64,000 nucleotides of DNA. It comes from Candidatus Omnitrophota bacterium. Its GTDB lineage: Bacteria; Omnitrophota; Gorgyraeia; Zapsychrales; Fredricksoniimonadaceae. The translations under genes were made by a program, and so were the position numbers. Positions 12,390 through 58,870 of this stretch are shown in pieces (the stretch's first letter is position 1; each line of letters opens with the position of its first letter). The notes under the pieces were generated by a model, which did no database searches, was not told the DNA's origin, and was given only the letters and a program-made list of their open reading frames with translations. The DNA lies in the NCBI GenBank assembly GCA_044225175.1, contig JBGAJA010000001.1, positions 742,711 through 806,710 of the forward strand. The letters run 5' to 3'.

Positions 12390-13766
12390 TTATTTACTGA
12401 AACTCTGATAAACTTTGATTCCCTTAATTACATTAATTGCAGCAACTAATTGATTATCTGCAAGATCTTTCTTGATTTGTTCTTGTTCCTTTTTCTTTTG
12501 TTCTGTCATAACCGCAGGCTCTTCTTTATGCTCTCTTTTTTCAACTTCATCAAAAATATCCTCTAAATCTTTCTTATCTTTCTTATCTTTCTTATCTTCA
12601 GCCTTATCAGAAACTTTCTCTTCTTTGGTTTTTTTGATGACAATATCCGGCGTAATCCCCTTACCATGGATACTCACACCTGAGGGAGTAAAATACTTTG
12701 CTGTGGTTAGGCGTAAACCTGATCCATCTGGCAATGGGATGACAGACTGAACAGAACCTTTTCCAAAAGATTGGGCCCCAACAATGACAGCCCTCTTATT
12801 ATCTTTTAAAGCCCCTGCAAAAATTTCACTTGCAGATGCACTTCCTTCATTAATAAGAACAGCTACTGGCCAATTTAAAAAATCCCCACGGGTATTACTC
12901 GATTTAGATAGCGTATTAAGAGCAGCGTGGCGGCCTTTAGTTGAGACAATGACCTTACCATCAGGAAGAAAATCTTCAGAAATCTTGATAGCTACATTTA
13001 GAAGCCCCCCAGGATTATTACGCAAGTCTACAATAAGGCTGTCTGCACCTTGGCTCTTCAATTTTTCAACATTTTCATGAAATTCATTATAAGAATTCTC
13101 ACGAAACTCTGTTAAGCGAATATATCCAATATGATTGTCAATCAAGTGTGGATCTTTAATGTCTTGAACATGGATCAATTCTCTCGTAATAGTAAATTCT
13201 TTAACTAAACTTTCACTTTCACGAAGAATGGTAATATGGATGACTGTTCCTGGTTTTCCTCTCAAACGTTTTACAGCATCACTCAACGTCATATCACGCG
13301 TGACTTCTTTTTCAATTTTAACTATCCTGTCACCTGCCTTAATTCCGGCTTTCCAAGCTGGCGAATCTTCAACTGGAGTAATAATAGTTAATAAACCATC
13401 TTTAATGGTAATTTCTATTCCTAAACCTCCAAACTTTCCTTGGGTTTCAGTTTTAAGTTCTTTGTAATCATCTGGATCCATAAATTGGCTATGGGGATCT
13501 AGAGATGATAGCAACCCTTTAAGTGACCCATAAATTAAATCTTTAGGGGTCTTTTCTTCCACATATTCTGATTGGATCGTAGTCAATGCATAACTATAAA
13601 GCTCAACATTAGAGTACAGATCTTCTCGGCTCAGAGTTTTACTAGCCTTAGGCAATTCTTTAGTCACATTAACTTTATCTTCATCTGCTCTAAGGACATC
13701 TATACGAGGTAAAACCCCTAAACATACAAAAAATGCCAAAACAATTAATAATCTTCTTTTAAACAT
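12390..13766 (-). CDS. ctpA: Carboxy-terminal processing protease (S41 family, PDZ domain)
   Basis: 458 aa. Signal peptide, PDZ region, S41 motifs (GGLGIEI, DLRNNPGGLL, SASASEIFAGAL). Low-complexity KKDKKDKKD tail. Confidence 0.85.
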   Translation of the reverse strand: MFKRRLLIVLAFFVCLGVLPRIDVLRADEDKVNVTKELPKASKTLSREDLYSNVELYSYALTTIQSEYVEEKTPKDLIYGSLKGLLSSLDPHSQFMDPDDYKELKTETQGKFGGLGIEITIKDGLLTIITPVEDSPAWKAGIKAGDRIVKIEKEVTRDMTLSDAVKRLRGKPGTVIHITILRESESLVKEFTITRELIHVQDIKDPHLIDNHIGYIRLTEFRENSYNEFHENVEKLKSQGADSLIVDLRNNPGGLLNVAIKISEDFLPDGKVIVSTKGRHAALNTLSKSSNTRGDFLNWPVAVLINEGSASASEIFAGALKDNKRAVIVGAQSFGKGSVQSVIPLPDGSGLRLTTAKYFTPSGVSIHGKGITPDIVIKKTKEEKVSDKAEDKKDKKDKKDLEDIFDEVEKREHKEEPAVMTEQKKKEQEQIKKDLADNQLVAAINVIKGIKVYQSFSK

Positions 13767-23500: not shown

Positions 23501-26500
23501 GCTCCATCATCGTAAACTTTTAAATCCGGCGTGATAGGAGTATTCATTTTAGCCGTGGGTTGCGGAGCCCCCATTTCGTAACTGGTTGCTGGCTCATCTT
23601 CAGCCAAAAGCTTGATACGTTCCCCTAAGCTTAATAATTCCGTATGTTCATCAGCGCTTAATGGTGATTTACGTCTTTGCTCTAAAAGGTCTAGAAATCG
23701 CTGGGCCATTTGTCTGGGTACAATGACATAGCCATTGGTTTTAATTTTAGGCAAATCGTGGTGTTTTAGGAAATCGAATGTTCTAACATCATAGTTCATA
23801 AACGCTCTTAATGCGTCTGGTGTGAAATCAGCCACGATCAATTCTAATGTCTTTGAACCAAGGGTTTGTTTACTGATTAAATGAAAGTCATTGTATCGAA
23901 CAATGGTGGCACCGATCGATTCAAGCGCTTTTTGGGCGCCCCATTCAAATATATCTTCATTAACAAAGAGAACTTCTTTGCCTTGCTTCATAAGTAATTG
24001 GCCAAAACCTTTCTCATTAGGCAAAAGCACATACTTACCACTAGACTGCAAGGAATTGATCAAACGAGCAATTTTCTTTTTGATCATTCGCTTGATATCA
24101 TTAACCACATAGGCATTTTCTTGATTATCAGCAATCAAAGCTTCTAAGCCAGCCACAAGTGTATTGATGTATTTGATCTTCTGCACATCTCCCATTGGAT
24201 TCTCAAGAATACCTTTGACCATTTGTTCAACAGCCAATTGCATAGGCCAAGGGTTTCGAGCGTCATGATCCGATGGAAAGATGACCTTGTCTCTGGATTG
24301 TTGAACATTGATAAGCGTAGCAAACTCAAGGGCCAAATTTCCTTCAATTACAGAATCAGGATGAGTGGTCTCAGAAAGAGGAATACGCATGATAACTTCC
24401 CCATTTCTAACAAATGCGACAGACCTGCCTGGCTCATGAACATGAATGACCTTGATCTTACGAAGCTCCTCTTGAATGTCTCCTTGTGATAAGCTTTCAG
24501 TTGCCTTTGTTCCCCCTTCACCCGGGACTAACATTCCAGATAACACAGAAATATTCATCCCACTGCCATTATCAACAACCTTGATTTCGTGTTCATTAAA
24601 ATCAATGTTAATCCATTTTTCTTCTGATTTCACAAGTTGGTGTCCACTTGGCACAATAAACTCTCTATTTTCCCATCCATTGATCTTTTCTGTCTGTTGA
24701 TTTAGCTGTGTGGTAATTTTGATGTTTTCTACAATTCCAAAACGACTATGAATATTGTCCTTTAACCATTTTAAAGAATTGACTTGGCCATCCTGTACAA
24801 TGCTTTTGACTTTTCCTATTCTTACAACAGTCCCTTGTGTCATTCCTGGAACTTGGGTGGCCTTAAGAAAATCATCATCAGTCATAGAATAAATTTGTAT
24901 TTGATAAGCCTTATGTTCATCTTTCATGACTGTTAAACGCCAGGCTGGTTTGCCTTCTTGTTTGGTTACAATATCCAATCGATCTCCTGGATCCTCCAAC
25001 CAATCTAAAATTTGTTTAACTCCCTTACCAAACTGACCAATAGAGCCGCCCAATGCATCAATGCTATTAGCAACTGCTTCAATAATCGATTGCCCCTTGG
25101 GGTTTCCACTTTGTAAGCCAATGACAGAATCTAACCGTATCTCTTCATTAGTTCCTGCCTTTAAAGATTTGATCATGGCCTCTGTATAGCCTTGTTTGGC
25201 TAAAGCTTCTAGTGTTTCGATCGGAGATTCCTGACGCTTAAGCTTTTTCTGTGCCCTTAAGAATTCTAAAAGGTTAACCCCATTAAAAGGCAAAGCATTC
25301 CAATAGCTGTTATCACCCACCGGGTTGTCGGGATCAATCCTGGCAGAAACCATGGCTAAATCGCCCATTAAAGCATCTTTGGATATGGATTGAACTGTTT
25401 TAAAAACTTCTCCTAATCCATATTTAGAAGAGTTCAAAGCTAAATCAGCTCCCCCAGAGAAATACTTTCGTGGAATTGATTGATGGGTTATAGGATCAGT
25501 TACTTCTTTGATATAGTTGTAGACGCCTTTTTTGAAAGCGGTCAAGTAACGTTGGTAAATTAATTCGATATCTGTAGGGGCAGGGCTTGTCCCTGCCCTA
25601 GATAGGGCGGGTGTAAAACCCGCCCCTACAATTTTATTCTGATCAATATACACCTTTGCTAAAATCGAATCCCTAATCTTCTTCTTGTACCAGGTAGCTA
25701 GAATCAAAGAACCATACACCTGCCTAAGCTGCACAAAGTTGGCCCCTTCATTGATCTCTTTGGTCAATTCAGGAATAACAACCTCCCGTATGATCTGACT
25801 GTGCAAAAAGGTGTCAGACACCTTTTTATCAACCCGCCCCTTCAAAAAGGTGTCTGACACCTTTTTGGAGGCTACGTAGTCTTCTTCCAACATCACCTTT
25901 AGCCTGGATTCCACTACATAGGCTGTTCCTGCTTTAGCATTCTCATAAACCACTGCCTTTTCAGGGACTATCCATACCTTGTTGAAAGTATTGACTGGGA
26001 TATTGGTTGTTCCATACCTTTTGGCGGATTCTTCATAGATTCTTCTCCAGAATCTCTTTCCTATCTCATCTTCTGGGTACATAAGGCTGGCTGTGATCTG
26101 CTTTAGCATGTAGTCCTGGGCTAATAGGTCACGTCCCATCTCGGTTTGGCCAAAGCTTTCTGGGACAATGCGGTTTTTCTCATAGGGACTTAGATTCACC
26201 CATAGGTCGGCTTCTGGGGTGGTTAAAGAGGCCAAAAAGTACTTGATTAGACGGCTGGATTCTTGCCTTAAATTATGTGCATCAGCGACGGAACGTGACC
26301 CTGGATCTAGGATAAAATCGAAGCGAAAGGGGTTATCTGGATGGACCTTGATTCCTTTGAGTAGAGGTGGGGTCACAGGCGGACTTAAATGCACTCTCAC
26401 CCCAGGCTTAGGCAAATGAATGTCCTGGGCGTACGTCGGCATAGGACCCATACTGGTCACAATAAAACTAACCAAGATGACAATGACTAATGGGGTTTTG

Positions 26501-31065: not shown

Positions 31066-33693
31066 TTAGCTTAAAGGAATATCCAAGAAGGTTTGTGGAC
31101 TTGCAAGTGGAACAATGCGAAGAATCATTGGCTCAATTCCTAAGAAATCCTCACCTTGAAATTGAGCCGTAAAGGCTGGAAATTTCATCTCAATATTTTT
31201 ACCTTCTTTAACAACATCTAATTCCATATTCTTTGAGCTCAAATCAACACCACCAGGATTATTAATCTTGGCAGCTTTTGAATGACTCATAGCAAAATCT
31301 ACTTTCTTACTAAAACCTTCGGGATACTGGGTTACCCCATCTTCTTCTTTTAAAATAATCTGATAAGTATTTCCTGATATTCTCTTATGGCTCAAATATT
31401 TCTCAACCAACTCTGCGAGCTCATCAAGTTTACTATTTAAATCATCAATCTCTACAAAATCATTCCACAGATCATGGGTTAAATTGTTAACTATGGAAGT
31501 CTTTATTCTATTTCTTAGTATTACCCTCTCAGCTTCTCCTATTGGTGGAGCCGTAAATCTAGAGCCTTTCAAAGATTCCGCAATACTATGAGGGTCATAT
31601 GTATCAATCCTCTCAAGCAATAATGAAATTATGTGTTGAACATCAGTCATTGACAAATTTCTTGATAAATCAAGGTTAAAATCACCAGCACCAAGAGGAC
31701 GAATAGTCAATAGATTAAGGGCTTCAAGAATATCGTCGTCTTTTACAAAGGGGAACGCACGTTTCAAGAATTTTCCAAGTTGTTCTTTAACATTTGATTT
31801 AGACATCAGCGGACTCATAGAAAAAAATTCTTTATGAGCTATATTAGCCAAAACAATACTTCTAATTTCTGCAGGGATGTCTGTACTTAGAATATAATTA
31901 GAATCTGTCTTAAAATTGATCGTATGCTTTAGTTTTTCTTGGATTCTAAAGCCCTCTATAGCTGAGCGGATGATCGTCAATATGGGGAGTTTTATGTTAC
32001 CATTGTTATTAAACAATCTTTCTCTGATAAGATTTGCTTCATCCTGAGTTTGATTCTCAAATAATCGATATCTATTATTCTGCATTTGATCAACCTTCTG
32101 CACTAAACGATCAAATAAATTACTATTTTTATAAAAGATCTTTTCTAAAAGCGGCAATCCTTCCTTATCAAGATAATCCGGGTTTTCAAAAGCCTCACGA
32201 AACAACCTGCCGATTACATCTCCTTTCTTAGCAAAACGTATAAATTGTTGAAAATCATAGAATGAAACATTTGAATTCATCGCAAAATCTTTAGATTTGT
32301 TATGTACTCTTGCCATATAGACACTAGCCATAGCCAAATCTCCATTGGCCCCCAGACTATCTTGAGAGGACGCCGTTGAAACACGCTGTAGTACATTCGG
32401 AATCCCCAAGTCTTGAGCTATGCCCCCTGAGAAGTACTTCCTAGAAATTCGCTGGTCTCGGGTTGATTCTAGATCTTCTTTGATGTAGTTAAATACGCCT
32501 TTTTTGTAGGCTTGGAGGTATTGATGGTAGATGGTTTCAACGTCAGATGGTGGGTTCCTCTGGGTCGCTTTCAGTTTCAACCCTGAGTCGCTTGGCAATG
32601 TGCTTGGGGACACGTTCCTGTTGATTTTGACCTGAACATGTCCCCTGGTCGGCGTTGTATAACCAATTCCTTCAATTTTCTTCTTATCTGCATACACCTG
32701 ATTCAATAATGTATTCTTAAGGGTTTGTTTGTACCATGTGGCTAGGATCATGGAATAGAACATTTGGCGCAAGGGGGCGAAGTTTTGGCCTTGGTTGACC
32801 TCGTTTTCTAATTCGGGCAATATGATGTCGCGGATGATTTGGTTTGCTAAGGCGTTGGGGGTGTTTCCCTGGGGTGCTTTCGCATTCAGCGCTGTCTCGC
32901 TTGGCAGCATGCTTGGGGACACGTTCTTATTGGTTTTGTAATGAACATGTCCCCTGGTTGGCGTTTGATTTTTTTCATTAGCTAGATAATCTTCCTCCAA
33001 CATCACCTTCAAATGCGCTCCAACGATATACCCTACGTTATTCCTCTCAAGAACCTTGGCTTTATCGGCTACGATCCATACTTTATTGAATGTATTCACA
33101 GGAATTTGGGTATTACCATAAAGGGCTTGGGCCTTTGCATAAACCTTGTCCCAGAATTTCTTGCCTAGGTCTTTCTCAGGATAAATTAGAGAAGCGGTTA
33201 ATTGTTTGAGGATGTAATCTTGGGCCAGCATGTCTCGGCCTAGCTCGGTGTTCCCTAGTTCTTCAGGAACTATTCTGTCTTTCTCATAGGGGGATAAATT
33301 CACCCAGAGGTCTTTTTCGGGGATAGTTAATGAGGCTAGGAAATATTTGATTAATTTGTTTGATTCGTCTTGTAGGGGTGACCCTTGCGGTCGCCCTTTT
33401 TGGACAGGGGCGAGCCCTGCCACTACGGACAATCCAGAATTCCCTGTATCCACGACGAAATCAAATAACAAAGGATTCTCTGGATGGACTTTCAGGCCTT
33501 TGATCATGACAGGCATATAGGCCTGGCTCAAAGACATCATTTCTCCAGGCACAGGCAATTGTAGGGGCGAGGTTCCCTCGCCCTTAATAGGCCTGGGAAA
33601 CCCAGCCCCTACATCAGCCCAAGTAGAGCGTGGCCCCAAAATGCCTGTAATTATGAAGCACAGGAGAATAACAACAGATGTCATTTTTTTCAT
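31066..33693 (-). CDS. Secreted protein (875 aa), paralogous to the N- and C-terminal modules of the 2991-aa giant protein
   Basis: Signal peptide MKKMTSVVILLCFIITGILGPRSTWA. N-terminal ~400 aa align with the giant protein (e.g. LIKYFLASLT(I/T)PE(K/A)DLWVNLSPYEK(D/N)RIVPE...NTFNKVWIV...LKVMLEEDY). The C-terminal ~70 aa are also related. Confidence 0.8.
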   Translation of the reverse strand: MKKMTSVVILLCFIITGILGPRSTWADVGAGFPRPIKGEGTSPLQLPVPGEMMSLSQAYMPVMIKGLKVHPENPLLFDFVVDTGNSGLSVVAGLAPVQKGRPQGSPLQDESNKLIKYFLASLTIPEKDLWVNLSPYEKDRIVPEELGNTELGRDMLAQDYILKQLTASLIYPEKDLGKKFWDKVYAKAQALYGNTQIPVNTFNKVWIVADKAKVLERNNVGYIVGAHLKVMLEEDYLANEKNQTPTRGHVHYKTNKNVSPSMLPSETALNAKAPQGNTPNALANQIIRDIILPELENEVNQGQNFAPLRQMFYSMILATWYKQTLKNTLLNQVYADKKKIEGIGYTTPTRGHVQVKINRNVSPSTLPSDSGLKLKATQRNPPSDVETIYHQYLQAYKKGVFNYIKEDLESTRDQRISRKYFSGGIAQDLGIPNVLQRVSTASSQDSLGANGDLAMASVYMARVHNKSKDFAMNSNVSFYDFQQFIRFAKKGDVIGRLFREAFENPDYLDKEGLPLLEKIFYKNSNLFDRLVQKVDQMQNNRYRLFENQTQDEANLIRERLFNNNGNIKLPILTIIRSAIEGFRIQEKLKHTINFKTDSNYILSTDIPAEIRSIVLANIAHKEFFSMSPLMSKSNVKEQLGKFLKRAFPFVKDDDILEALNLLTIRPLGAGDFNLDLSRNLSMTDVQHIISLLLERIDTYDPHSIAESLKGSRFTAPPIGEAERVILRNRIKTSIVNNLTHDLWNDFVEIDDLNSKLDELAELVEKYLSHKRISGNTYQIILKEEDGVTQYPEGFSKKVDFAMSHSKAAKINNPGGVDLSSKNMELDVVKEGKNIEMKFPAFTAQFQGEDFLGIEPMILRIVPLASPQTFLDIPLS
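32552..32656. repeat. ~105-bp direct repeat, copy A, inside the 875-aa paralog CDS, with internal inverted repeat GGGGACACGTTC...GAACATGTCCCC
   Basis: Near-identical to 32861-32966. Each copy encodes TPTRGHV..K.N.NVSPS.LPS. The internal ~12-bp inverted repeat could form a hairpin. Confidence 0.7.
32861..32966. repeat. ~105-bp direct repeat, copy B, inside the 875-aa paralog CDS
   Basis: See copy A. About 309 bp separates the copies. Confidence 0.7.
33371..33428. repeat. Double-hairpin palindromic element, degenerate copy P2, in-frame in the 875-aa paralog CDS
   Basis: TGTAGGGG-TGACCC-ttgc-GGTCGCCC-tttttgga-CAGGG-gcgag-CCCTG-CCACTACGG. Same termini and architecture as G1, with a degenerate 3' end. 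Encodes LAPVQKGRPQGSPLQDE. Confidence 0.55.
33560..33613. repeat. Double-hairpin palindromic element, copy P1, in-frame in the 875-aa paralog CDS
   Basis: TGTAGGGGC-GAGG-ttc-CCTC-GCCCTTAATAGG-CCTGGG-aaa-CCCAGC-CCCTACA. Encodes GAGFPRPIKGEGTSPLQLPV just after the signal peptide. Confidence 0.75.
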
Positions 33694-39882: not shown

Positions 39883-40631
39883 CGGATATTCACTTTCTTA
39901 TTTTTTAAATATTGTTTTACTTCTGGCACAGGTATTTCTCCAAAATGAAAGACTGAAGCAGCCAATGCGGCATCTGCACTGGTTTTCGTAAATACATCAT
40001 AAAAATGTTCAAGCTTTCCTGCTCCTCCTGAGGCGATAACTGGAATCGTGACTGCCTCAGAAATTGCCTTAGTTAATGCCAAATCAAAGCCATTCTTGGT
40101 GCCATCGGCATCCATGCTAGTTAGAAGAACCTCTCCTGCTCCTTTAGCCTGACCTTCTTTAGCCCAAAGTATAGCATCTTTGCCAGTTGCCGTGCGACCT
40201 CCATGGGTAAATACTTCCCAACGGTTTCCTACACGTTTAGCATCAATCGCAATCACAATACACTGAGATCCAAACATATTGGAGGCACGAAGCAATAATC
40301 CTGGTTCATTTACCGCCGCGGTATTAATAGAAACCTTATCAGCCCCTGCATTTAAAAGAGCACGGATATCCGACACATTATTAATCCCGCCACCCACCGT
40401 CAAAGGCATAAACACTTCTTCAGCTGTTTTCTGAACAACATCTAAAAAAATCTTACGCTTCTCAAAGCTAGCTGTAATATCCAAAAACACCAACTCATCT
40501 GCCCCAGCTTTATCGTAAGCCCGCGCACAATCCACCGGATCCCCCGCATCCCGAAGTTCCACAAAATTAACCCCTTTGACCACCCGGCCGTCTTTGACAT
40601 CTAAACATGGAATAATGCGTTTGTTTAACAT
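39879..40631 (-). CDS. hisF: Imidazole glycerol phosphate synthase cyclase subunit
   Basis: 250 aa. [20 protein letters not shown] is the HisF signature. Confidence 0.9.
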
Positions 40632-40633
40632 AA

Positions 40634-41230
40634 TTAAATATAAGACTGTTTAAATTGCATAGAATATAAAAAAAAGTACATAGAGATAACGAGCCCTAAT
40701 AACATAAATAATGTGTATTTAAATATTAATGACTCTCGATTAATAATTACAATTTTAGGATTAGATGGATTGTAATATATTTTTACCATAGAACCTTCAG
40801 GATATTTCTCTAAAGCTTCATGGGCTGAATTTCTTGTTGGATAATCAAAATGGTTCATTAAACTATTTCTTTTAAGATATTTATTGCCACTGACAGTGTA
40901 CTCAATAATAGATTCAGCGATATATGCGACACCTTCACCCCGTGACTCAACCACATTATTCTTAATAATCTTACCTTCAGTTATTGGCCATTGCCGAGTC
41001 ACAAGAATATGTCGGATACAGTACCAACACAGAGTAATATAAAATAAGCCAATTAATATAACAATCAGAGGAGAAACATACACAAATCCGAATGTTTTAA
41101 TAAACAATATGGAATTACTTAAAAAAATTAATATAAACGTAGTAATAACTAGATACAAAAGCGAATATATTATTATTTTGAACATAAACTTAATCTCCTG
41201 ACTTAACCGCTCTTTTCTGTTTTTTGTCAC
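40634..41230 (-). CDS. DUF3592-like membrane protein inserted within the his operon
   Basis: 198 aa. Two N-terminal TMs, a soluble region ([10 protein letters not shown]...YYNPSNP), and a C-terminal TM. The ORF-track start is GTG; an internal Met is possible. Confidence 0.55.
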
Positions 41231-41292
41231 CCCCGAATACTTTAATCGGGGGTCCAGGTCCTAGATTCCCGACAAAAACATTCGGGAATGAC
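41224..41292. repeat. Second-type double-hairpin palindromic element (TTGTCA...TGACAA termini), intergenic
   Basis: TTGTCA-CCCCCGA-atactttaa-TCGGGGG-tccaggtcctagat-TCCCGA-caaaaacat-TCGGGA-ATGACAA. Shares the central CCTAGAT spacer with element G1. Confidence 0.65.
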
Positions 41293-41299
41293 AAAAGTT

Positions 41300-42019
41300 T
41301 TAACTACAAAGCTTCAAAGCTTCCTTAAAGTCTAGTTTTCCCTCGTAAATAGCTTTTCCTGTGATTGCACCAGCCACACCTTTCATGGCTGCAAGCTTTC
41401 GGACATCATCGATTGTACCGATGCCTCCAGAGGCAATGAGTTTGGTTTTCTTTAAAGTGTTTAACATAGTCTCCAGCTGTTCAAAGTTTGGTCCAGCCAG
41501 GGTTCCGTCTTTGGCGATGTCGGTGTAGACCATCCATTGAACGCCTAAAGCTTCCAGCTCCAAAGCTAAGTCTGTGGCTTTGACATTGGTTGTAGACACC
41601 CAGCCTCTTTGAGCTACCATTCCATCATTGCAATCTAGGCTTACACAAATCTTCTCCCCATACAGACCTAATACTCTTTTTAAGAATGTGCGATCTTCAA
41701 TAGCACGCGTGCCAAGAATCACACGGGCCACATTGGCTTTAATTAATTCATCAATTGTTTGCTGACTTCTGATTCCACCACCAACTTCTACGGGTATCTT
41801 TACTGTCTGTGCAATTTTCTTAATGATCTCTTGATTAAACATTACTCCATCTTTAGCTCCATCTAAGTCAACCAAGTGCAGCCATTTAGCTCCAAGATCC
41901 TCCCACTTGCGGGCCATACTTAATGGATCATCAACATATTGGGTCACTTCAGAGAACTTTCCCTGAAACAATCGAACGACTTTTCCATCTTTAATATCTA
42001 TAGCAGGAATTAGAATCAT
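41300..42019 (-). CDS. hisA: ProFAR isomerase (1-(5-phosphoribosyl)-5-[(5-phosphoribosylamino)methylideneamino]imidazole-4-carboxamide isomerase)
   Basis: 239 aa. MILIPAIDIKDGKVVRL is the HisA signature. Confidence 0.9.
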   Translation of the reverse strand: MILIPAIDIKDGKVVRLFQGKFSEVTQYVDDPLSMARKWEDLGAKWLHLVDLDGAKDGVMFNQEIIKKIAQTVKIPVEVGGGIRSQQTIDELIKANVARVILGTRAIEDRTFLKRVLGLYGEKICVSLDCNDGMVAQRGWVSTTNVKATDLALELEALGVQWMVYTDIAKDGTLAGPNFEQLETMLNTLKKTKLIASGGIGTIDDVRKLAAMKGVAGAITGKAIYEGKLDFKEALKLCS

Positions 42020-43288: not shown

Positions 43289-43708
43289 TTAAATCCTTTC
43301 TTTATTTAAAGCATTATTCCAACTTTGACCTAATCTATAAATCTGTTTCCCAGCAATATCGTATTCTTTAATGAGATTATTAGCACTTTCAATATCCTGA
43401 CTATTGCAATACAAATCTCTATAACAGGACAAATGAACAATCATTTCATTACATTCTCCCATGGCATCTTTAAGATATTTCTGCCATTCTTTCGGATAAT
43501 ATTTTCTAGCATAGCCTTCCGCAATAATAGCTAAAGGTGCCTTTGAAGCTCTCCGCATTTGATCTGCTAAACCGAATCTTTCTTCTATAGGTAATTTTGT
43601 GATAATTTCTTTTGTAATAGTTATCATAGCCTTATAAAGACGCTGATAAACATCTAAATCTGAAAAAGTTCTAATCTTCTCACTCATCATACCCATTACC
43701 ATCCCCAC
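43289..43708 (-). CDS. Four-helix-bundle protein (23S rRNA intervening-sequence protein family) inserted in the his operon
   Basis: 139 aa. DLDVYQRLYKAMITITKEI...EERFGLADQMRRASKAPLAIIAEG is typical of that family. Confidence 0.65.
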   Translation of the reverse strand: MGMVMGMMSEKIRTFSDLDVYQRLYKAMITITKEIITKLPIEERFGLADQMRRASKAPLAIIAEGYARKYYPKEWQKYLKDAMGECNEMIVHLSCYRDLYCNSQDIESANNLIKEYDIAGKQIYRLGQSWNNALNKERI

Positions 43709-47533: not shown

Positions 47534-47603
47534 GTGTCATTGCAAGGAGCAAAGCGACGAAGCAATCTATTAAAGGATTGCTTCACTTCGTTCGCAATGA
47601 CAC
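47534..47603. promoter_or_regulatory. 70-bp nested imperfect palindrome immediately upstream of alaS RBS (downstream of recX)
   Basis: Outer 10-bp stem GTGTCATTGC/GCAATGACAC. Inner 9-bp stem GAAGCAATC/GATTGCTTC around loop tattaaag. Ends ~15 nt before AGGAAAATATG (alaS). Confidence 0.5.
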
Positions 47604-52495: not shown

Positions 52496-54088
52496 ATGAA
52501 TTTTAACCCATACACAATCCCACCAATTTTGTGTTTGTTACTGGCTGTTATATGTGGTGTTTTTGTTATTGGTCAGAATCCTAAAGCAAAACTAAATCAG
52601 ATTTTCTTATTTATATGCCTAACATTTATAGGCTGGTTCTCCTTTTACATCCCCTTTAATTTTCCATACTCAGAGCATCAAATATTAATTTGGACTAAAA
52701 TTTCTTTTTGTTTTATTTCTTTCATTCCTATAACGACTTTCACATTTATTTCCACTTATTTACAAATCCCTAAGAATGAATTCTGGTTTAGAATAAACTC
52801 ATTAATTGGATTAGTATTCTCTATATTAAGCCTAAGTACTGATTGGATTATTAAAGGAGTCTTGCATTTGCCTTGGCATCCTTATCCTGAGGCTGGCATT
52901 CTTCATCCACTACTAATATTACACTGCCTTTCCTTAGCTTATTGGGGGATAAAATTGACACTTATTACGCTAAAAGATAAATCCCTTTCTGATAAGCGGC
53001 GCAATCATATCAAATACATGTTTATCGCCATGATTGCATTAACACCTGGAGCCATTGACTTTCTAGGAAATTATAATATTCAAGTTTACCAAATCGGATA
53101 TATACCGGTATCTGCTTATTTATTAATAACGACAATCGCCATCATTAAATATCAATTAATGGACATTCAGATTATATTAAAGAAAAGTCTTCTTTATACA
53201 ATTTTGATTGCCGTTATTGCCCTGTTCTATTTTCTTTCCATTTATGTGGCTGAACATGCTCTACAGAATATCTTTAAATATCAGTCTATTTTTATTTCTC
53301 TATTCTTCGCCACTATTATTGCTATTGTCTTTATTCCGATTAAAAACTTTCTAGAAAAGCATCTGTTTAATAAAAGTTTAGGGATGATTGCCGAAGAAAA
53401 TGATCTTTTAAGAGTGGAAGTTGCTCAAACTGAAAAATTCAAAATGGTAGCCAATCTGGCCAGTAGCATTGCCCATGAAATCAAAAATCCCCTGACTGCC
53501 CTTCAAACTTTTAATGAATATTTACCTCAAAAAAAGAATGATCCAGAGTTTTTTGATAAATACCAAACCATCGTATCGCAAGAGCTCAATCGTATTAATG
53601 GTTTAGCACAAGAACTTTTAGCTTTTGCCAAGCCTTGCCCCCCTCAAATCCAACAAGTCAATCCCAACGAAATCATTACTCAAATCATCCAATTAGTTCA
53701 TCAGAAATGCTCTGCAAATAAAATCAATATTGAAACTAAGCTAGAGGCCCATAACCTTATATCAGCCGACCCCAATCAACTCAAACAAGCATTGCTTAAT
53801 ATTATCCTGAACGCCATTGATGCCATGCCTGATGGAGGCATATTAACTATTTCTACCAGTGTCATTGCGAGCGAAGCGAAGCAATCTTTTACTATTAGCA
53901 TCTCCGACACCGGCTCCGGCATCTTCCCTAAAGATTTACCTCATATCTTTGAACCGTTTTATACAGGAAAAGAAAAAGGCACAGGATTAGGACTTGCAAT
54001 TACTCAAGGGATTGTTGAGAAACATGGCGGGAAAATATTCGTAGAAAGCAAAATTAACCAAGGCACAACATTTACTATAAAACTATGA
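52496..54088 (+). CDS. Sensor histidine kinase 1 of tandem array (multi-TM N-terminal sensor + HisKA + HATPase_c)
   Basis: 530 aa. ~6-7 TMs, H-box [14 protein letters not shown] boxes ([25 protein letters not shown]). 4-nt overlap with next HK. Confidence 0.85.
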
Positions 54089-55674
54089 CACCATTTGCGC
54101 TTTCAGGACTCTTAATTGTGATCACTCATTTAAGTATGGGCACATTTCTACTAATAAAAAATTTTCATAATCCCATTAATCGACTGTATTCATATTTTAC
54201 TTTTGTAGTAGTAATCTGGGGATTAGCAGCTTTCAAAATCGGTACTATTCAAAATTTAGAATCTGCCATCTTATGGTGGAAAATAGGTCATATAGGTATA
54301 ATTTTCGTTCCTATTATGTTTCTTCAATTTGTTTATAGATTTATTGAACAGAAAAATCAAATCTTAATAGTTAGTATTTTTACTGTAACTATTTTCTTTT
54401 TAGCCACCCTTTTTTCCGGACATTTATTAAATACACCGGAATTTATTTTCAATTCATTCTATTACAATGCACACCCCAATCTTTTATACAAAATATTTAC
54501 TACTCTTTGGTTAATGGCTATTATTTTTAGTCATTGCCTTTTATACAAACAGTTAAGAAAAGTTTCCAAGATTAAACAGAATCAAATTAAATATTTCTTC
54601 TTAGCAATAATAATTGGATATACCGGTAGCATCACTAACTTTTTACCCGTATTTGGTATAAATCTTTACCCTTATGGAAATTTTACAATCGTTATTTATC
54701 CAATAATTATGACCTACGCCATTTTGAAATATCAACTAATGGATATAAATATTGTTATCAGAAAAAGTCTTATTTATTCTTCCTTAGTAACAGTTATTAC
54801 ACTGATCTTTTTAACCTCCGTATTAATTTCAGAAAGAATATTCCATCATTTTTTTCAATACAAAGATTTATTTACTTCCATTTTGACTGCTGGTCTTATT
54901 GCTTTAATATTTATTCCCTTAAAGAATGTGATCCAAAACTTTATAGATCATTTATTCTTTAAAGGAACAACGATTGAAATAGCCCAACAAAACGAACAAT
55001 TACGTCACGAAATAGCCCAGACAGAAAAATATAAAATAGCAGCAGCTTTATCCAGCGGAATTGCTCACGAAATCAAAAATCCTTTAACTTCCCTGTCCGT
55101 CTTTACCGAATATCTTCCTGACAAGAAAAATGATCCCGCCTTTCTTGAACAATATCAAAAGATTGCCCAACAAGAAATCGGCCTCATTAACAGCCTTTTA
55201 CAAGAATTACTAGACTTTGCTAAACCCTGCGCACCTCAAATGCAACAGACCAATCTTAATGAGGTCATCACACAAGTCATTCAATTGGTCAGAAAAAAAT
55301 GTGAACAGTCAAAAGTTCTTATTGAAACCTCACTCCAAGCTGATAAAGATCTATCTGCAGACCCAAATCAACTCAAACAAGCCCTGCTAAATTTGATACT
55401 TAATGGTATGGATGCCATGCCTAATGGTGGCACATTAACTATAACCACAGTGATATCATCACAGCACATAATCACCATTTCCGACACCGGCTCTGGAATC
55501 GCCGCCAAAGACCTCCCTCACATTTTTGAGCCCTTTTATACAAAGAAAGAAAAAGGCACTGGATTAGGACTAGCTATTACTCAAGGCATTGTAGAAAAAC
55601 ATGGTGGAAAATTAGAAGTCGAAAGCAAATTAAACCAAGGGTCTACATTTAGGATAACTTTAAAAGTAATATGA
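54085..55674 (+). CDS. Sensor histidine kinase 2 of tandem array
   Basis: 529 aa. Same architecture, H-box [12 protein letters not shown]. Paralogous to HK1, HK3 and HK4. Confidence 0.85.
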
Positions 55675-57266
55675 ACTATTTTAGCATTACTGCGATTTTA
55701 AATTCATTAACAAGCGCCTTGGCATGTATCTTTATACTTTTAAACAATACAACAACTAAAACAAATCAATATTTTGCTCTGTTTGCATTTGCTGTATCTA
55801 TATGGGCGTTCTTTTTTCGAGTATACGCTTCAAATGAAGCTTCACAGGAAGAAGCATTATTAGCTATGCGAATAGCTATTGGGGTCGCCATCTTTATCCC
55901 AACTCTCTTCTTACATTTTGCAACACACTTAATCAATGAAAATGGTAAGCATCTAAATACATTGCGCTTATTATATTTATTTACTTGTATTATAGCCTTA
56001 ACAGCATTCTCTCCACTATTCATTAAAGATGCTAAACAATATTTGCTTTTTAAATATTGGCCTGAGCCTGGTCCAACTTATATTTTCCACACTCTTAATT
56101 ACGTATTTGTTCCACTTCTAGGTTTTAAAATTTTATATTCAAAAATTAAAATAACAGCAGGACATAAACAAAAACAATTAAAGTTAGTATTTTGGGGAGT
56201 TCTTCTAGCCTATCTTGGAGGATTAACAAATTTTCCACTGTCATATAACTTCCCTTTACTGCCAATAGGCAACGTATTCGTTTCTTTCTATATAGCTTTT
56301 ATTACATATGCGATCTTTAAATACCAATTAATGGATATTAATATCATTCTTAAAAAAAGCTTAATTTATACAATTTTAATTTCAATAATTACTGTCTTTT
56401 ATTTAATTCTTATTTATCTTACCGAACATATCATTCAATCTTTATTGGGGTATAAGTCTCTACTCGTATCCATTATATCAGCTACTGGCATTGCATTAGC
56501 TTTCATACCTTTAAAAAACTTTGTTCAGGATTTTGTAGAAAAGTCTTTCTTTAGCGGATCATATACTAAAATTTCTGAAGAGAATGATCTATTAAGGGAT
56601 GAAGTTGCTCAAACTGAAAAATTTAAAGTAATTGCTAATCTAGCTAGCAATATTGCTCATGAGATAAAGAACCCCCTCACTGCCCTCAAAACTTTTAATG
56701 AATATTTACCTCAAAAAAAGAATGATCCTGAATTCTTTAACAAATACCAAACTATTGTCGCTCAAGAATTGGAACGTATTAATAACTTAGCACAAGAGCT
56801 ATTAGCTTTTGCTAAACCGTGCCCGCCACAAATGCAGCAAATTAATCCTAATGATGTCATTAACCAAGTCCTTCATTTGGTTCAACAAAAGTGTACAGTT
56901 AATAAAATCGACATTGAGACTGAATTTAAAGGTAATATCCATTTAGATGCGGATCCTAATCAGCTTAAACAAGCTTTATTGAATTTGATTCTAAACTCCC
57001 TTGATGCGATGTCTAATGGTGGAATCTTAAGAATCTCCACCAAAACTCAAAATATACATTACACAATCGACATTTTAGATACGGGCTGCGGAATTGATCC
57101 CAAAAACCTCCCACACATATTTGAGCCCTTTTATACTAAAAAAGAAAAAGGAACAGGGCTAGGCCTTGCCATTACGCAGGGAATTGTTGAAAAACATGGC
57201 GGGAAATTAACAGTAGAAAGCAAATTAAACCAAGGAACCACATTTAGAATAATCTTACCGATATGA
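55671..57266 (+). CDS. Sensor histidine kinase 3 of tandem array
   Basis: 531 aa. The kinase core is near-identical to HK1 (e.g. AEENDLLR[V/D]EVAQTEKFK..., [15 protein letters not shown]). Confidence 0.85.
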
Positions 57267-58870
57267 CATTCTTTATTATTACCAGCTTTATCAACGCTTT
57301 ATCTTCTGGATTTTGTTGTTTATTTATTCTCTTGAATAATATTAAATCTAAACCTGCTAAATCGTTTGCAATATTCTTTTGTTTCGTAGCTCTGTGGTCT
57401 TTCTTTTATTTCTTAAGCATGCTTGCCACGGAATATAACGAAGCGATTTTCTATTCAAGAGCTTTAAATACACTAGCACTATTTATCCCTCCAGCTTTCT
57501 TAAAATTTTGTATTGAATATACAAATGAAAAAAACTTGTTATTTAGAAGAATATTATTTCTTTTCTTCATCATTGATCTAGCTATCCTACCTTTTGTTAA
57601 TACTCCATACTTTATTGTAACTATGAAGCATGTTCTATTCTTTAAATTCTGGCCTCAAGCAGGCATACTCTTTCACATTTCTTTTATACAATACATGATT
57701 ATCATTCCTATTTCACTCCATCTTCTAAGGAAAAAACTAATTCAATCGACTAGACAAAATTCTCACCAACTAAAAATTTTAGTTTATTCTTTATTAATTG
57801 GATTTCTAGGAGGAGGAACAAATTATTGCCTTTGTTTAAATATTCCCATTGCACCCTATGGAAACCTACTAGTGTGCGTCATTGCTTTTGGTTTTCTTTA
57901 TTTGGTTTTTAAATATCAAATTATGGACCTGAAAATAACTCTTTCCAGAGGTCTTGCATATACCATACTAATTTTTCTTATCACTTTATCCTACTTTACA
58001 ACCACCTACATAACAGATTCTTACTTACAAAGACTCACGGGTTATAAATCTTTTCTTTTTTCATTTTTAATCGCCACAATTACTGCTTTAGCTTTTGTGC
58101 CTTTGAGAAATTACCTTCAAAACTTAATAGACAAGTTCTTCTTTAAAAAGTCGATACAGGAAGTGGAAGAAGAAAATCTTTTTCTAAGGCAAGAAATAAC
58201 CCAGTCAGACCGTCTTAAATCTATAGCTATACTAGCAAGTGGCATGGCCCATGAAATCAAGAATCCTCTCACCGTTCTTAAAACCTTCACTGAATACTTG
58301 CCCAAAAAAATGGACGACAAAGAATTCTTAAAAAAGTTTACTCCTATGGTTGCCGAGGAAGTTACCCGTATTGATAATTTGGTGCATGAACTTCTTGATT
58401 TTGCTAAGCCTGCTTCTCCTGTTCTTAAACCACTTAAAATCAAAGAGCATGTTCAAAGCACCCTAGATCTTTTGAGCAATGAGTACATTAAACACAATAT
58501 CAAAACAACTACGGATTTTCTTTTACCGGCTGATACCACAGTCATGCTTGATCCAAATCAAATTAGACAAGCTCTCTTAAACATACTTCTTAATGCCATT
58601 GATGCTATGCCAACAGGTGGACAATTAAATATAGGAATATATAGCTCTTCTGAGGGTACGATTAACATTAAAATCCAAGATTCAGGGCCAGGAATTGACC
58701 CTAAGGATTTGCCTCATATTTTTGATCCATTTTATTCCAAAAAAGACAATGGAACTGGCTTAGGCCTTGCCATTACTTATGAAATTGTTCGAAATCACGG
58801 TGGGAAGATTTTTGTGGAAAGCTCTAAAGGTAAAGGTGCGGCGTTTGTGCTGGAATTTCCTTCTATCTAA
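57263..58870 (+). CDS. Sensor histidine kinase 4 of tandem array
   Basis: 535 aa. More divergent paralog. H-box [12 protein letters not shown]. Same TM-sensor layout including the conserved KYQ(I/L)MD(I/L) amphipathic linker. Confidence 0.85.
   Translation: MTFFIITSFINALSSGFCCLFILLNNIKSKPAKSFAIFFCFVALWSFFYFLSMLATEYNEAIFYSRALNTLALFIPPAFLKFCIEYTNEKNLLFRRILFLFFIIDLAILPFVNTPYFIVTMKHVLFFKFWPQAGILFHISFIQYMIIIPISLHLLRKKLIQSTRQNSHQLKILVYSLLIGFLGGGTNYCLCLNIPIAPYGNLLVCVIAFGFLYLVFKYQIMDLKITLSRGLAYTILIFLITLSYFTTTYITDSYLQRLTGYKSFLFSFLIATITALAFVPLRNYLQNLIDKFFFKKSIQEVEEENLFLRQEITQSDRLKSIAILASGMAHEIKNPLTVLKTFTEYLPKKMDDKEFLKKFTPMVAEEVTRIDNLVHELLDFAKPASPVLKPLKIKEHVQSTLDLLSNEYIKHNIKTTTDFLLPADTTVMLDPNQIRQALLNILLNAIDAMPTGGQLNIGIYSSSEGTINIKIQDSGPGIDPKDLPHIFDPFYSKKDNGTGLGLAITYEIVRNHGGKIFVESSKGKGAAFVLEFPSI

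Follow-up and report, generated by a model that had tools for sequence, protein, structure and literature searches.

NTS is a 28-nt repeat of Neisseria (CGTCATTCCCGCGMAVGCGGGAATCYRG) that contains the dRS3 repeat and is the substrate of SsnA, a 94-aa single-domain GIY-YIG nuclease that binds NTS only as single-stranded DNA (ssDNA) and cuts it a few nucleotides upstream (Chenal et al., Nat Commun 2025, PMC11893778). Neither RNA nor double-stranded DNA is a substrate of SsnA, and the hairpin loop is dispensable; the C right after the palindrome is the position most critical for binding, and the three bases before the palindrome are those most critical for cutting (PMC11893778). The catalytic residues of SsnA, a member of family cd10448, are Y6, Y17, and E64, and a survey of RefSeq genomes has shown that ssn genes from different phyla typically have such motifs on either side, designated Ssn-related motifs (SRM) (PMC11893778). 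The dRS3 repeat is in addition a known target of the recombinase of a filamentous prophage in Neisseria (PMC11893778). Here we describe element E, a 75-bp intergenic sequence in a 64,000-nt stretch of the genome of a Candidatus Omnitrophota bacterium (assembly GCA_044225175.1, contig JBGAJA010000001.1, positions 742,711 to 806,710), the whole of which we refer to as the window. Comparison of the sequences indicates that E is very probably a long-loop member of the NTS/SRM hairpin repeats, in the form of a doublet without a gene, and hence of a kind that has already been described; this prior description of the family as repeats of Ssn nucleases was overlooked in the preliminary description of the locus.

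An inverted doublet of NTS-like hairpin units

Element E occupies positions 41222 to 41296 of the window and, being a tail-to-tail inverted doublet of two hairpin units with a palindromic TTTT/AAAA extension, is assigned to no strand. Its plus strand reads TTTTGTCA-CCCCCGA-ATACTTTAA-TCGGGGG-TCCAGG-T-CCTAGA-TTCCCGA-CAAAAACAT-TCGGGAA-TGACAAAA, where TTTTGTCA (41222–41229) and TGACAAAA (41289–41296) form the termini. Two stems had been predicted here and both are present in the sequence, CCCCCGA at 41230–36 pairing with TCGGGGG at 41246–52, and TTCCCGA at 41266–72 pairing with TCGGGAA at 41282–88. The bounding TTGTCA/TGACAA is likewise present, but the end originally placed at 41292 is 2 nt short, since TGACAA ends at 41294 and E itself extends to 41296. 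The neighboring genes, both on the minus strand, were correctly named as encoding a DUF3592 protein (PF12158) and hisA (PF00977).

The doublet consists of two inverted 34-nt units with 1 base between them, sharing the frame T-GTCA-[YYCCCGA]-9-nt loop-[TCGGGRR]-TC-YRG. Unit B (41225–41258, plus strand) reads T-GTCA-CCCCCGA-ATACTTTAA-TCGGGGG-TC-CAG-G, and unit A (41260–41293, minus strand) reads T-GTCA-TTCCCGA-ATGTTTTTG-TCGGGAA-TC-TAG-G; both are NTS-like, and each forms a perfect 8-bp helix. Both also match covariance model R1, unit B at 41223–41260 (+) with 49.9 bits and unit A at 41258–41295 (−) with 56.1 bits, scores that are partly circular because both units are members of the seed. Because the two hairpins are inverted near-copies of each other, all 75 nt also form a single imperfect palindrome (I1) whose 37-nt arms are 76% complementary and lie 1 nt apart. 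When folded as RNA, E reaches −42.4 kcal/mol on the minus strand (z −6.9) and −33.4 kcal/mol on the plus strand (z −4.6), with a single long hairpin favored and none of 200 shuffled sequences equally stable. As ssDNA, the two-hairpin form (−16 kcal/mol) and the one-hairpin form (−18 to −19 kcal/mol) differ by only 2–3 kcal/mol.

A likeness to dRS3 was apparent because the stem ends in ATTCCC...GGGAAT, and this led to the report of Chenal et al. (2025). Like the Neisseria dRS3/NIME repeats (ATTCCC-N8-GGGAAT), to which the stem ends of unit A correspond, the E family is intergenic, abundant in some genomes, and tied to variable gene content. However, unit A is ATTCCC-N13-GGGAAT and unit B is ACCCCC-N13-GGGGGT, so that the N8 definition does not apply, and there are no RS blocks between the repeats. 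The agreement with NTS is closer. In unit A the segments GTCATTCCCG and CGGGAATCYRG (CGGGAATC-TAG) are identical to NTS base for base, and unit B retains the NTS frame with a compensated CC/GG stem. The 5′ flank (H)GTC of NTS appears as T-GTC-A in both units; a palindrome of the ATTCCCG/CGGGAAT type is present with compensatory change (8-bp helices, with YY/RR in 55 of the 60 matches analyzed below); and the 3′ C followed by YRG is found as GGGAAT-C-TAG in unit A and GGGGGT-C-CAG in unit B. E thus resembles NTS/SRM in its 5′ GTCA(T), its ATTCCCG...CGGGAAT stem, its 3′ C and YRG, its capacity to form hairpins, and its dispersed occurrence. It differs in having a 9-nt loop (11 nt between CCCG and CGGG) as opposed to 4–6 nt, an A-T fifth stem pair, and an arrangement as an abutting inverted doublet with no ssn gene; its host belongs to an uncultured low-GC lineage.

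Searches of general resources identified no other family for E. At the gathering threshold, Rfam 15 finds only two tRNAs in the window and nothing at E, and at permissive E-values the best match at E is a generic miRNA hairpin of 24.9 bits against a threshold of 97. A literature search with the raw sequences of the element recovered primers only. The integron attC core sites RYYYAAC...GTTRRRY are absent from E by inspection, its ends being TTTTGTCAC and ATGACAAAA, and a CRISPR was considered after four direct units with a 68–69-bp period were seen at another locus (L039) and rejected, as E is a single inverted pair. A further covariance-model match in the window, at 12715–12746 (14.3 bits), lies within a conserved peptidase coding region and is attributed to chance. 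Two independent Logan assemblies of this organism stop within E, 36 and 25 nt past hisA (L001 3721–3756; L003 877–901), as is expected of a repeat or palindrome.

The long-loop family and its association with Ssn-like genes

To define the wider family we scanned one genome per GTDB species with a query for the 5′ half of the unit only (TTTGTCAYYCCCGAAT), which matched at least 120 stretches. Approximately half of the matches listed are chance occurrences in coding DNA and the other half continue identically: among the 121 distinct matches listed, TCGGG follows within 22 nt in 60, and at exactly the same offset in 58. The dinucleotide after TCGGG complements the YY of the query in 55 of those 60 (TT/AA 34, TC/GA 20, CC/GG 1). 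With 58 of 121 5′-half matches carrying TCGGG at an identical offset, the E-type structure occurs far beyond chance, and further copies do exist, as had been expected, being numerous and spread over many phyla.

The consensus unit is T-GTCAT-YCCCGA-ATGYTTTTA-TCGGGR-ATC-CAG. Double changes are seen at seven of the eight stem pairs among 71 aligned units, including pair 7/31 (A-T to G-C), which was not used for selection; the other stem pairs were selected for pairing and their percentage paired is therefore by construction. The C that follows the palindrome is conserved at 90% or more (alignment A5) and GTC is invariant in all 71 units, such that the TGTCA termini proposed as a shared motif prove to be the 5′ flank of each unit.

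Among the matches listed, the long-loop unit, either single or as an outward doublet, is present in metagenome-assembled genomes (MAGs) labelled as about 15 phylum-level groups. The record labels are Omnitrophota (several MAGs), Schekmanbacteria, FCPU426, Ignavibacteria, Calditrichota, Nitrospirota, Nitrospinota, Dadabacteria, Brocadiales, Elusimicrobia/Endomicrobia, Desulfobacterota, some Gammaproteobacteria, Spirochaetia, and Caldisericota. Other MAGs carry multiple copies, with at least six loci within one Schekmanbacteria MAG. Units with the CCCCCGA stem of unit B are found only in Omnitrophota MAGs among these matches, and the best alignment of E is to a doublet of an Omnitrophota MAG, from which E differs by missing a central spacer of about 12 nt; this resemblance by itself suggests an Omnitrophota-like source for the window. 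Several long-loop units (L011, L028, L071, L076, L079, L088, L096, L109, L189) have the 3′ flank ATATGG instead of ATCCAG; this sub-class lacks the C on which SsnA binding reportedly depends most, and usually the doublet partner keeps ATCTGG. The full long-loop unit also occurs on 13 viral contigs (IMG/VR, L209–L228), compared with about 0.2 expected by a rough estimate, and the 29.8-kb contig IMGVR_UViG_3300028845_000195 has at least five long-loop copies; no Ssn gene was found in these fetched IMG/VR stretches.

A regular-expression search of the fetched loci for a GIY-YIG motif found nothing, and a phmmer search of all locus open reading frames (ORFs) with a GIY-YIG consensus gave a single match. 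This match, at L056, is to an Ssn-like gene that is interrupted by a stop codon and has long-loop units about 20–30 nt from each end. The repaired L056 protein identifies 519 homologues, and all 120 of those listed carry PF01541; these are mostly 93–108 aa in length (a few reach 146 aa) and mostly encoded on very short contigs. The invariant residues Y7, Y18, and E65 in their alignment have the same spacing as Y6, Y17, and E64 of SsnA. Assignment of these proteins to the Ssn family is based on PF01541, length, and the published residue positions. One homologue (P0064) has an N-terminal extension, MNLDSRFRGND, that corresponds to a translated repeat unit and looks like an annotation artefact.

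We fetched 80 metagenomic loci encoding Ssn-like proteins, in 72 of which the flanks could be assessed. An inward-facing GTCAY hairpin unit lies within 200 bp of the gene in 62 of the 72, and on both sides in 34, while the opposite orientations are much rarer (10 and 16). The unit type of E hence shares with NTS/SRM the property of bracketing small single-domain GIY-YIG genes in inward orientation. The flanking units are mostly of NTS length, but are long-loop in ten loci; Ssn-like genes flanked by the long-loop type are found at L056, L124, L163, L166, L176, L189, L198, L200, and L203. The loci that seem unflanked mostly have variant hairpins of the same frame. We considered whether Ssn proteins with long-loop flanks form a separate clade, but they are scattered over the Ssn tree, which fits the reported irrelevance of the loop. 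Direct arrays are also seen, with four long-loop units of CRISPR-like spacing (68–69-bp period) at L039 3209–3441 in an Ectothiorhodospiraceae MAG, and three NTS-type units repeated every 29 bp immediately upstream of an ssn gene at L142 5–90.

Doublet formation, the history of the his locus, and alternative explanations

The 365 family units in all loci include 110 in 56 tail-to-tail pairs with their GTCA ends outward and a typical total length of 70–85 bp, compared with 16 head-to-head (inward) and 31 direct pairings. The outward inverted doublet is therefore the preferred dispersed form. Its geometry is that of the two units around an ssn gene (unit> ssn <unit), and E can for this reason be described as a module without its gene.

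The hisA–hisF junction exists in three states. In relatives whose hisA genes are 84% and 78% identical (L204–L206), hisA directly overlaps hisF as ATGTTAA. In the window, about 665 bp comprising E and the DUF3592 gene (40634–41185, minus strand, 183 aa; PF12158, E-value 2.8e-14) separate hisA from hisF, with E on the upstream side of DUF3592. Two copies of the former overlap, somewhat diverged, flank this insert, TGT(AGT)TAAAAC to its left and ATGTTAAAC to its right. The left copy of the ancestral hisA/hisF overlap TGTTAAAC, degenerate, lies in the hisA end TGTAGTTAAAAC (41297–41308, minus strand; stop at 41302–41300), immediately next to the outer boundary of E, and the right copy is the hisF start at 40623–40631 (minus strand; alignment A3). 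In the third state (L207, L208), hisA is followed after 4 nt by a DUF3592 gene (80% identical) and hisF, and E is absent. E was thus gained or lost as a discrete block of about 75–90 bp, independently of the DUF3592 gene, and because a relative with the same hisA–DUF3592–hisF order lacks E, it is not a signal conserved in this operon.

A search of the protein collection identified a single relative of the DUF3592 protein. The NCBI product is 198 aa, corresponding to an ORF whose GTG start codon, at 41230, coincides with the stem of unit B (41186–41230; P0246). The ATG at 41185 is supported by the relative (185 aa) and by the Logan gene call (183 aa), and the 198-aa start looks like an artefact caused by the repeat. 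Elsewhere in the operon, the hisD–hisB gap (43289–43708) is occupied here by a gene of the 23S_rRNA_IVP family and in a relative with 84% hisA identity (contig of P0122) by a pilin-like N_methyl gene, and is empty in L205. Because the contents of this gap differ, and given the DUF3592 gene between hisA and hisF, the his operon appears to be a site at which small accessory genes have landed repeatedly.

These features suggest how the doublet may behave. On ssDNA, each unit is predicted to fold into an 8-bp hairpin (A-YYCCCGA / TCGGGRR-T) that leaves the 5′ GTC unpaired and places a C immediately after the stem, and the GTC flank and 3′ C are exactly the positions that Neisseria SsnA (an approximately 95-aa GIY-YIG protein) needs for cleavage and binding. 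The units of E face outward, one per strand, and E resembles an Ssn module minus its gene, analogous to a REPIN relative to its RAYT gene, or to a miniature inverted-repeat transposable element relative to an insertion sequence. A cognate Ssn would then presumably be present in this genome and cut E, and Ssn, or recombination at the repeats, would spread the doublets. The main consequence would be on ssDNA metabolism (incoming or replicating DNA, recombination), with any influence on the his-operon mRNA a side effect. A bolder proposal, which we raise tentatively and think somewhat doubtful, is that outward SRM doublets are mobile but non-autonomous, the GIY-YIG equivalent of REPINs, with Ssn nicking each strand just outside the GTCA ends and moving or copying the doublet. 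If so, doublets would spread between phyla, partly on viral contigs, landing between or inside genes, and could border recently acquired genes, in this case DUF3592 in the his operon.

Several observations weigh against reading E as an Ssn-related repeat. The published SRM pattern, HGTCWYN(0-2)YYVSBRHN(0-5)WNVSBRGN(0-2)RNCYNB, matches neither unit of E nor any other position in the window; it recovers 87 of the 130 units of NTS length, as opposed to 7 of the 114 with a long loop, which it misses because of their loop length and A-T fifth pair. There is no ssn gene within the 64-kb window, and the window contains only one E-type doublet by covariance model R1. The alignment of relatives allows no clean target-site duplication to be defined for E alone. 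The published pattern, for its part, is a search heuristic and not a functional definition.

We also considered whether E is primarily an RNA element of the his transcript, acting as an attenuator, processing site, mRNA stabilizer, or translational decoupler. The genes on either side of E have the same orientation and E is presumably transcribed along with them, and its sense fold (−42.4 kcal/mol, z −6.9) is 9 kcal/mol better than the antisense fold through G-U pairs. An association with operon junctions had been suggested as a check, and 21 of 25 classifiable doublets elsewhere do lie between co-directional genes, but this is not clearly above the genomic background, and of these 21 only 7 fold better in sense, compared with 12 in antisense and 2 ties, which gives no sign of selection for RNA structure on the sense strand. 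No U-tract follows the stem (the minus strand continues with AAAAAACAGAAAAG), a terminator scan is empty at E, and no Rfam family matches. SsnA, moreover, is inactive on RNA (PMC11893778). The sequence is also found in many phyla with unrelated genomic surroundings, and E is missing both from close relatives with the same gene order and from those in which hisA overlaps hisF. A primary role in RNA is accordingly unlikely, and we treat any RNA effect of E as secondary.

We also weighed two further explanations. Systems of repetitive extragenic palindromic (REP) sequences, REPINs, and RAYT were reportedly described by Nunvar in 2010 and by Bertels and Rainey in 2011, and E could be a REPIN, that is, two REP sequences mobilized in trans by a RAYT (Y1 HUH transposase). 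The architecture is the same, with hairpin repeats arranged as an inverted pair that forms one long hairpin, an intergenic location, the inverted doublet as a common form of a dispersed family, and a cognate nuclease gene bracketed by repeats. However, the units have GTCA in place of the 5′ GTAG of RAYT-associated REPs, the gene bracketed in 62 of 72 loci encodes a GIY-YIG nuclease and not a Y1 HUH transposase (although no search was aimed at Y1 transposases), and the sequence frame is that of NTS; Ssn, for its part, is not known to mobilize repeats. We regard a REPIN as the least probable of the explanations considered. Scarcely more credible is the idea that E serves a site-specific recombinase or an IS110-type element as its attachment or target site and marks the integration of DUF3592, much as dRS3, within NTS, is a known target of a phage recombinase (PMC11893778). 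E does lie exactly at one end of the insert of about 665 bp bracketed by the duplicated TGTTAAAC, but the other end has no unit, no recombinase or phage genes are nearby, and the DUF3592 insert without E in L207 shows that the two are separable. Such a role is in any case compatible with E being a repeat of the Ssn nucleases, which remains the explanation that we favor.

Other repeats in the window and implications

The preliminary description proposed a superfamily of small hairpin elements in the window, in which the kinship of E with the palindrome upstream of alaS (47534–47603, no strand) is upheld, but its kinship with G1 and with the perfect palindromes described below is not supported. 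The alaS-upstream element is a second doublet, composed of inverted units of the GTCATTGC...GCAATC type (GTCA-TTGC-loop-GCAA-TC), and its proposed kinship with E is borne out since units of this type, likewise facing inward, lie on both sides of the Ssn-like genes of L168 and L187. The sequence GTCATTGCGA occurs 42 times in the 1.13 Mb of fetched loci, compared with about 2 expected (approximately 20-fold enriched). The doublet ends 3 nt before the Shine-Dalgarno sequence of alaS (minus strand TGACAC-TAGGAAAATATG), placing the alaS ribosome-binding site directly after a strongly structured repeat. A single GTCATTGCGAGCGAAGCGAAGCAATC unit at 53860–53889 (plus strand) is read in frame (VIASEAKQS) within the first of four tandem histidine-kinase paralogues (52496–58870), in a variable loop of the ATPase domain where the other three paralogues are 4–5 residues shorter.

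G1 (25573–25630) and G2 (33560–33613) are TGTAGGGGC...GCCCCTACA double-hairpin palindromes, each inside a long ORF. The heptamer CCTAGAT, which had been taken to connect E with G1, is found five times in the window with 6.35 occurrences expected, and is thus a chance similarity; in E it is the reverse complement of the conserved 3′ flank ATC-TAG-G of the unit. Moreover, the flank of G1 and G2 is TGTAG and not TGTCA, and they were not seen next to Ssn genes. Both are read in frame the same way (IVGAGFTPALSRAGTSPAPT and DVGAGFPRPIKGEGTSPLQ), and their host ORFs encode paralogous secreted proteins, a 2991-aa giant and one of 875 aa, each with a signal peptide and a shared L-P-x-P-G...KG(I/L)KVHP(D/E)NP motif. 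Similar GTAGGGGCG hairpins are present in FCPU426 and Schekmanbacteria MAGs, none of them next to Ssn genes. From its sequence, the GTAG flank suggests that G1 and G2 belong to a REP-like family. The giant ORF also contains two perfect palindromes, CAAAAAGGTGTC[A/T]GACACCTTTTTG, at 25804–25827 and 25844–25867, 16 nt apart and both translated as KKVSDTFL. These had been described as 23 bp in length and linked to E, but are 24 bp with the core GGTGTC[AT]GACACC, and no copy was found in the 1.13 Mb of related loci.

Rickettsia palindromic elements and other MITE-like palindromes insert in frame within coding sequences. The window has comparable cases in the GTCATTGC unit within the kinase gene and in G1 and G2 within the secreted proteins, but E is intergenic and has no sequence similarity to the Rickettsia elements.

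These findings place an oddity seen in raw sequence within a family whose enzyme was characterized only in 2025. What is new is limited to the long-loop variant, the doublet architecture, the presence/absence polymorphism, and what is probably a wider host range in uncultured phyla. The Ssn/hairpin-repeat system reaches well past the RefSeq genomes surveyed, into Omnitrophota, Schekmanbacteria, Nitrospirota, Nitrospinota, Ignavibacteria, Calditrichota, Brocadiales, Elusimicrobia, and others, and since the published pattern detects no more than 7 of 114 long-loop units, the number of repeats in such genomes is underestimated. The repeats also break short-read assemblies and cause false N-terminal extensions and spurious ORFs in the annotation of MAGs. 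Finally, a doublet that is polymorphic between close relatives is the type of evidence needed to ask whether Ssn mobilizes its own sites.

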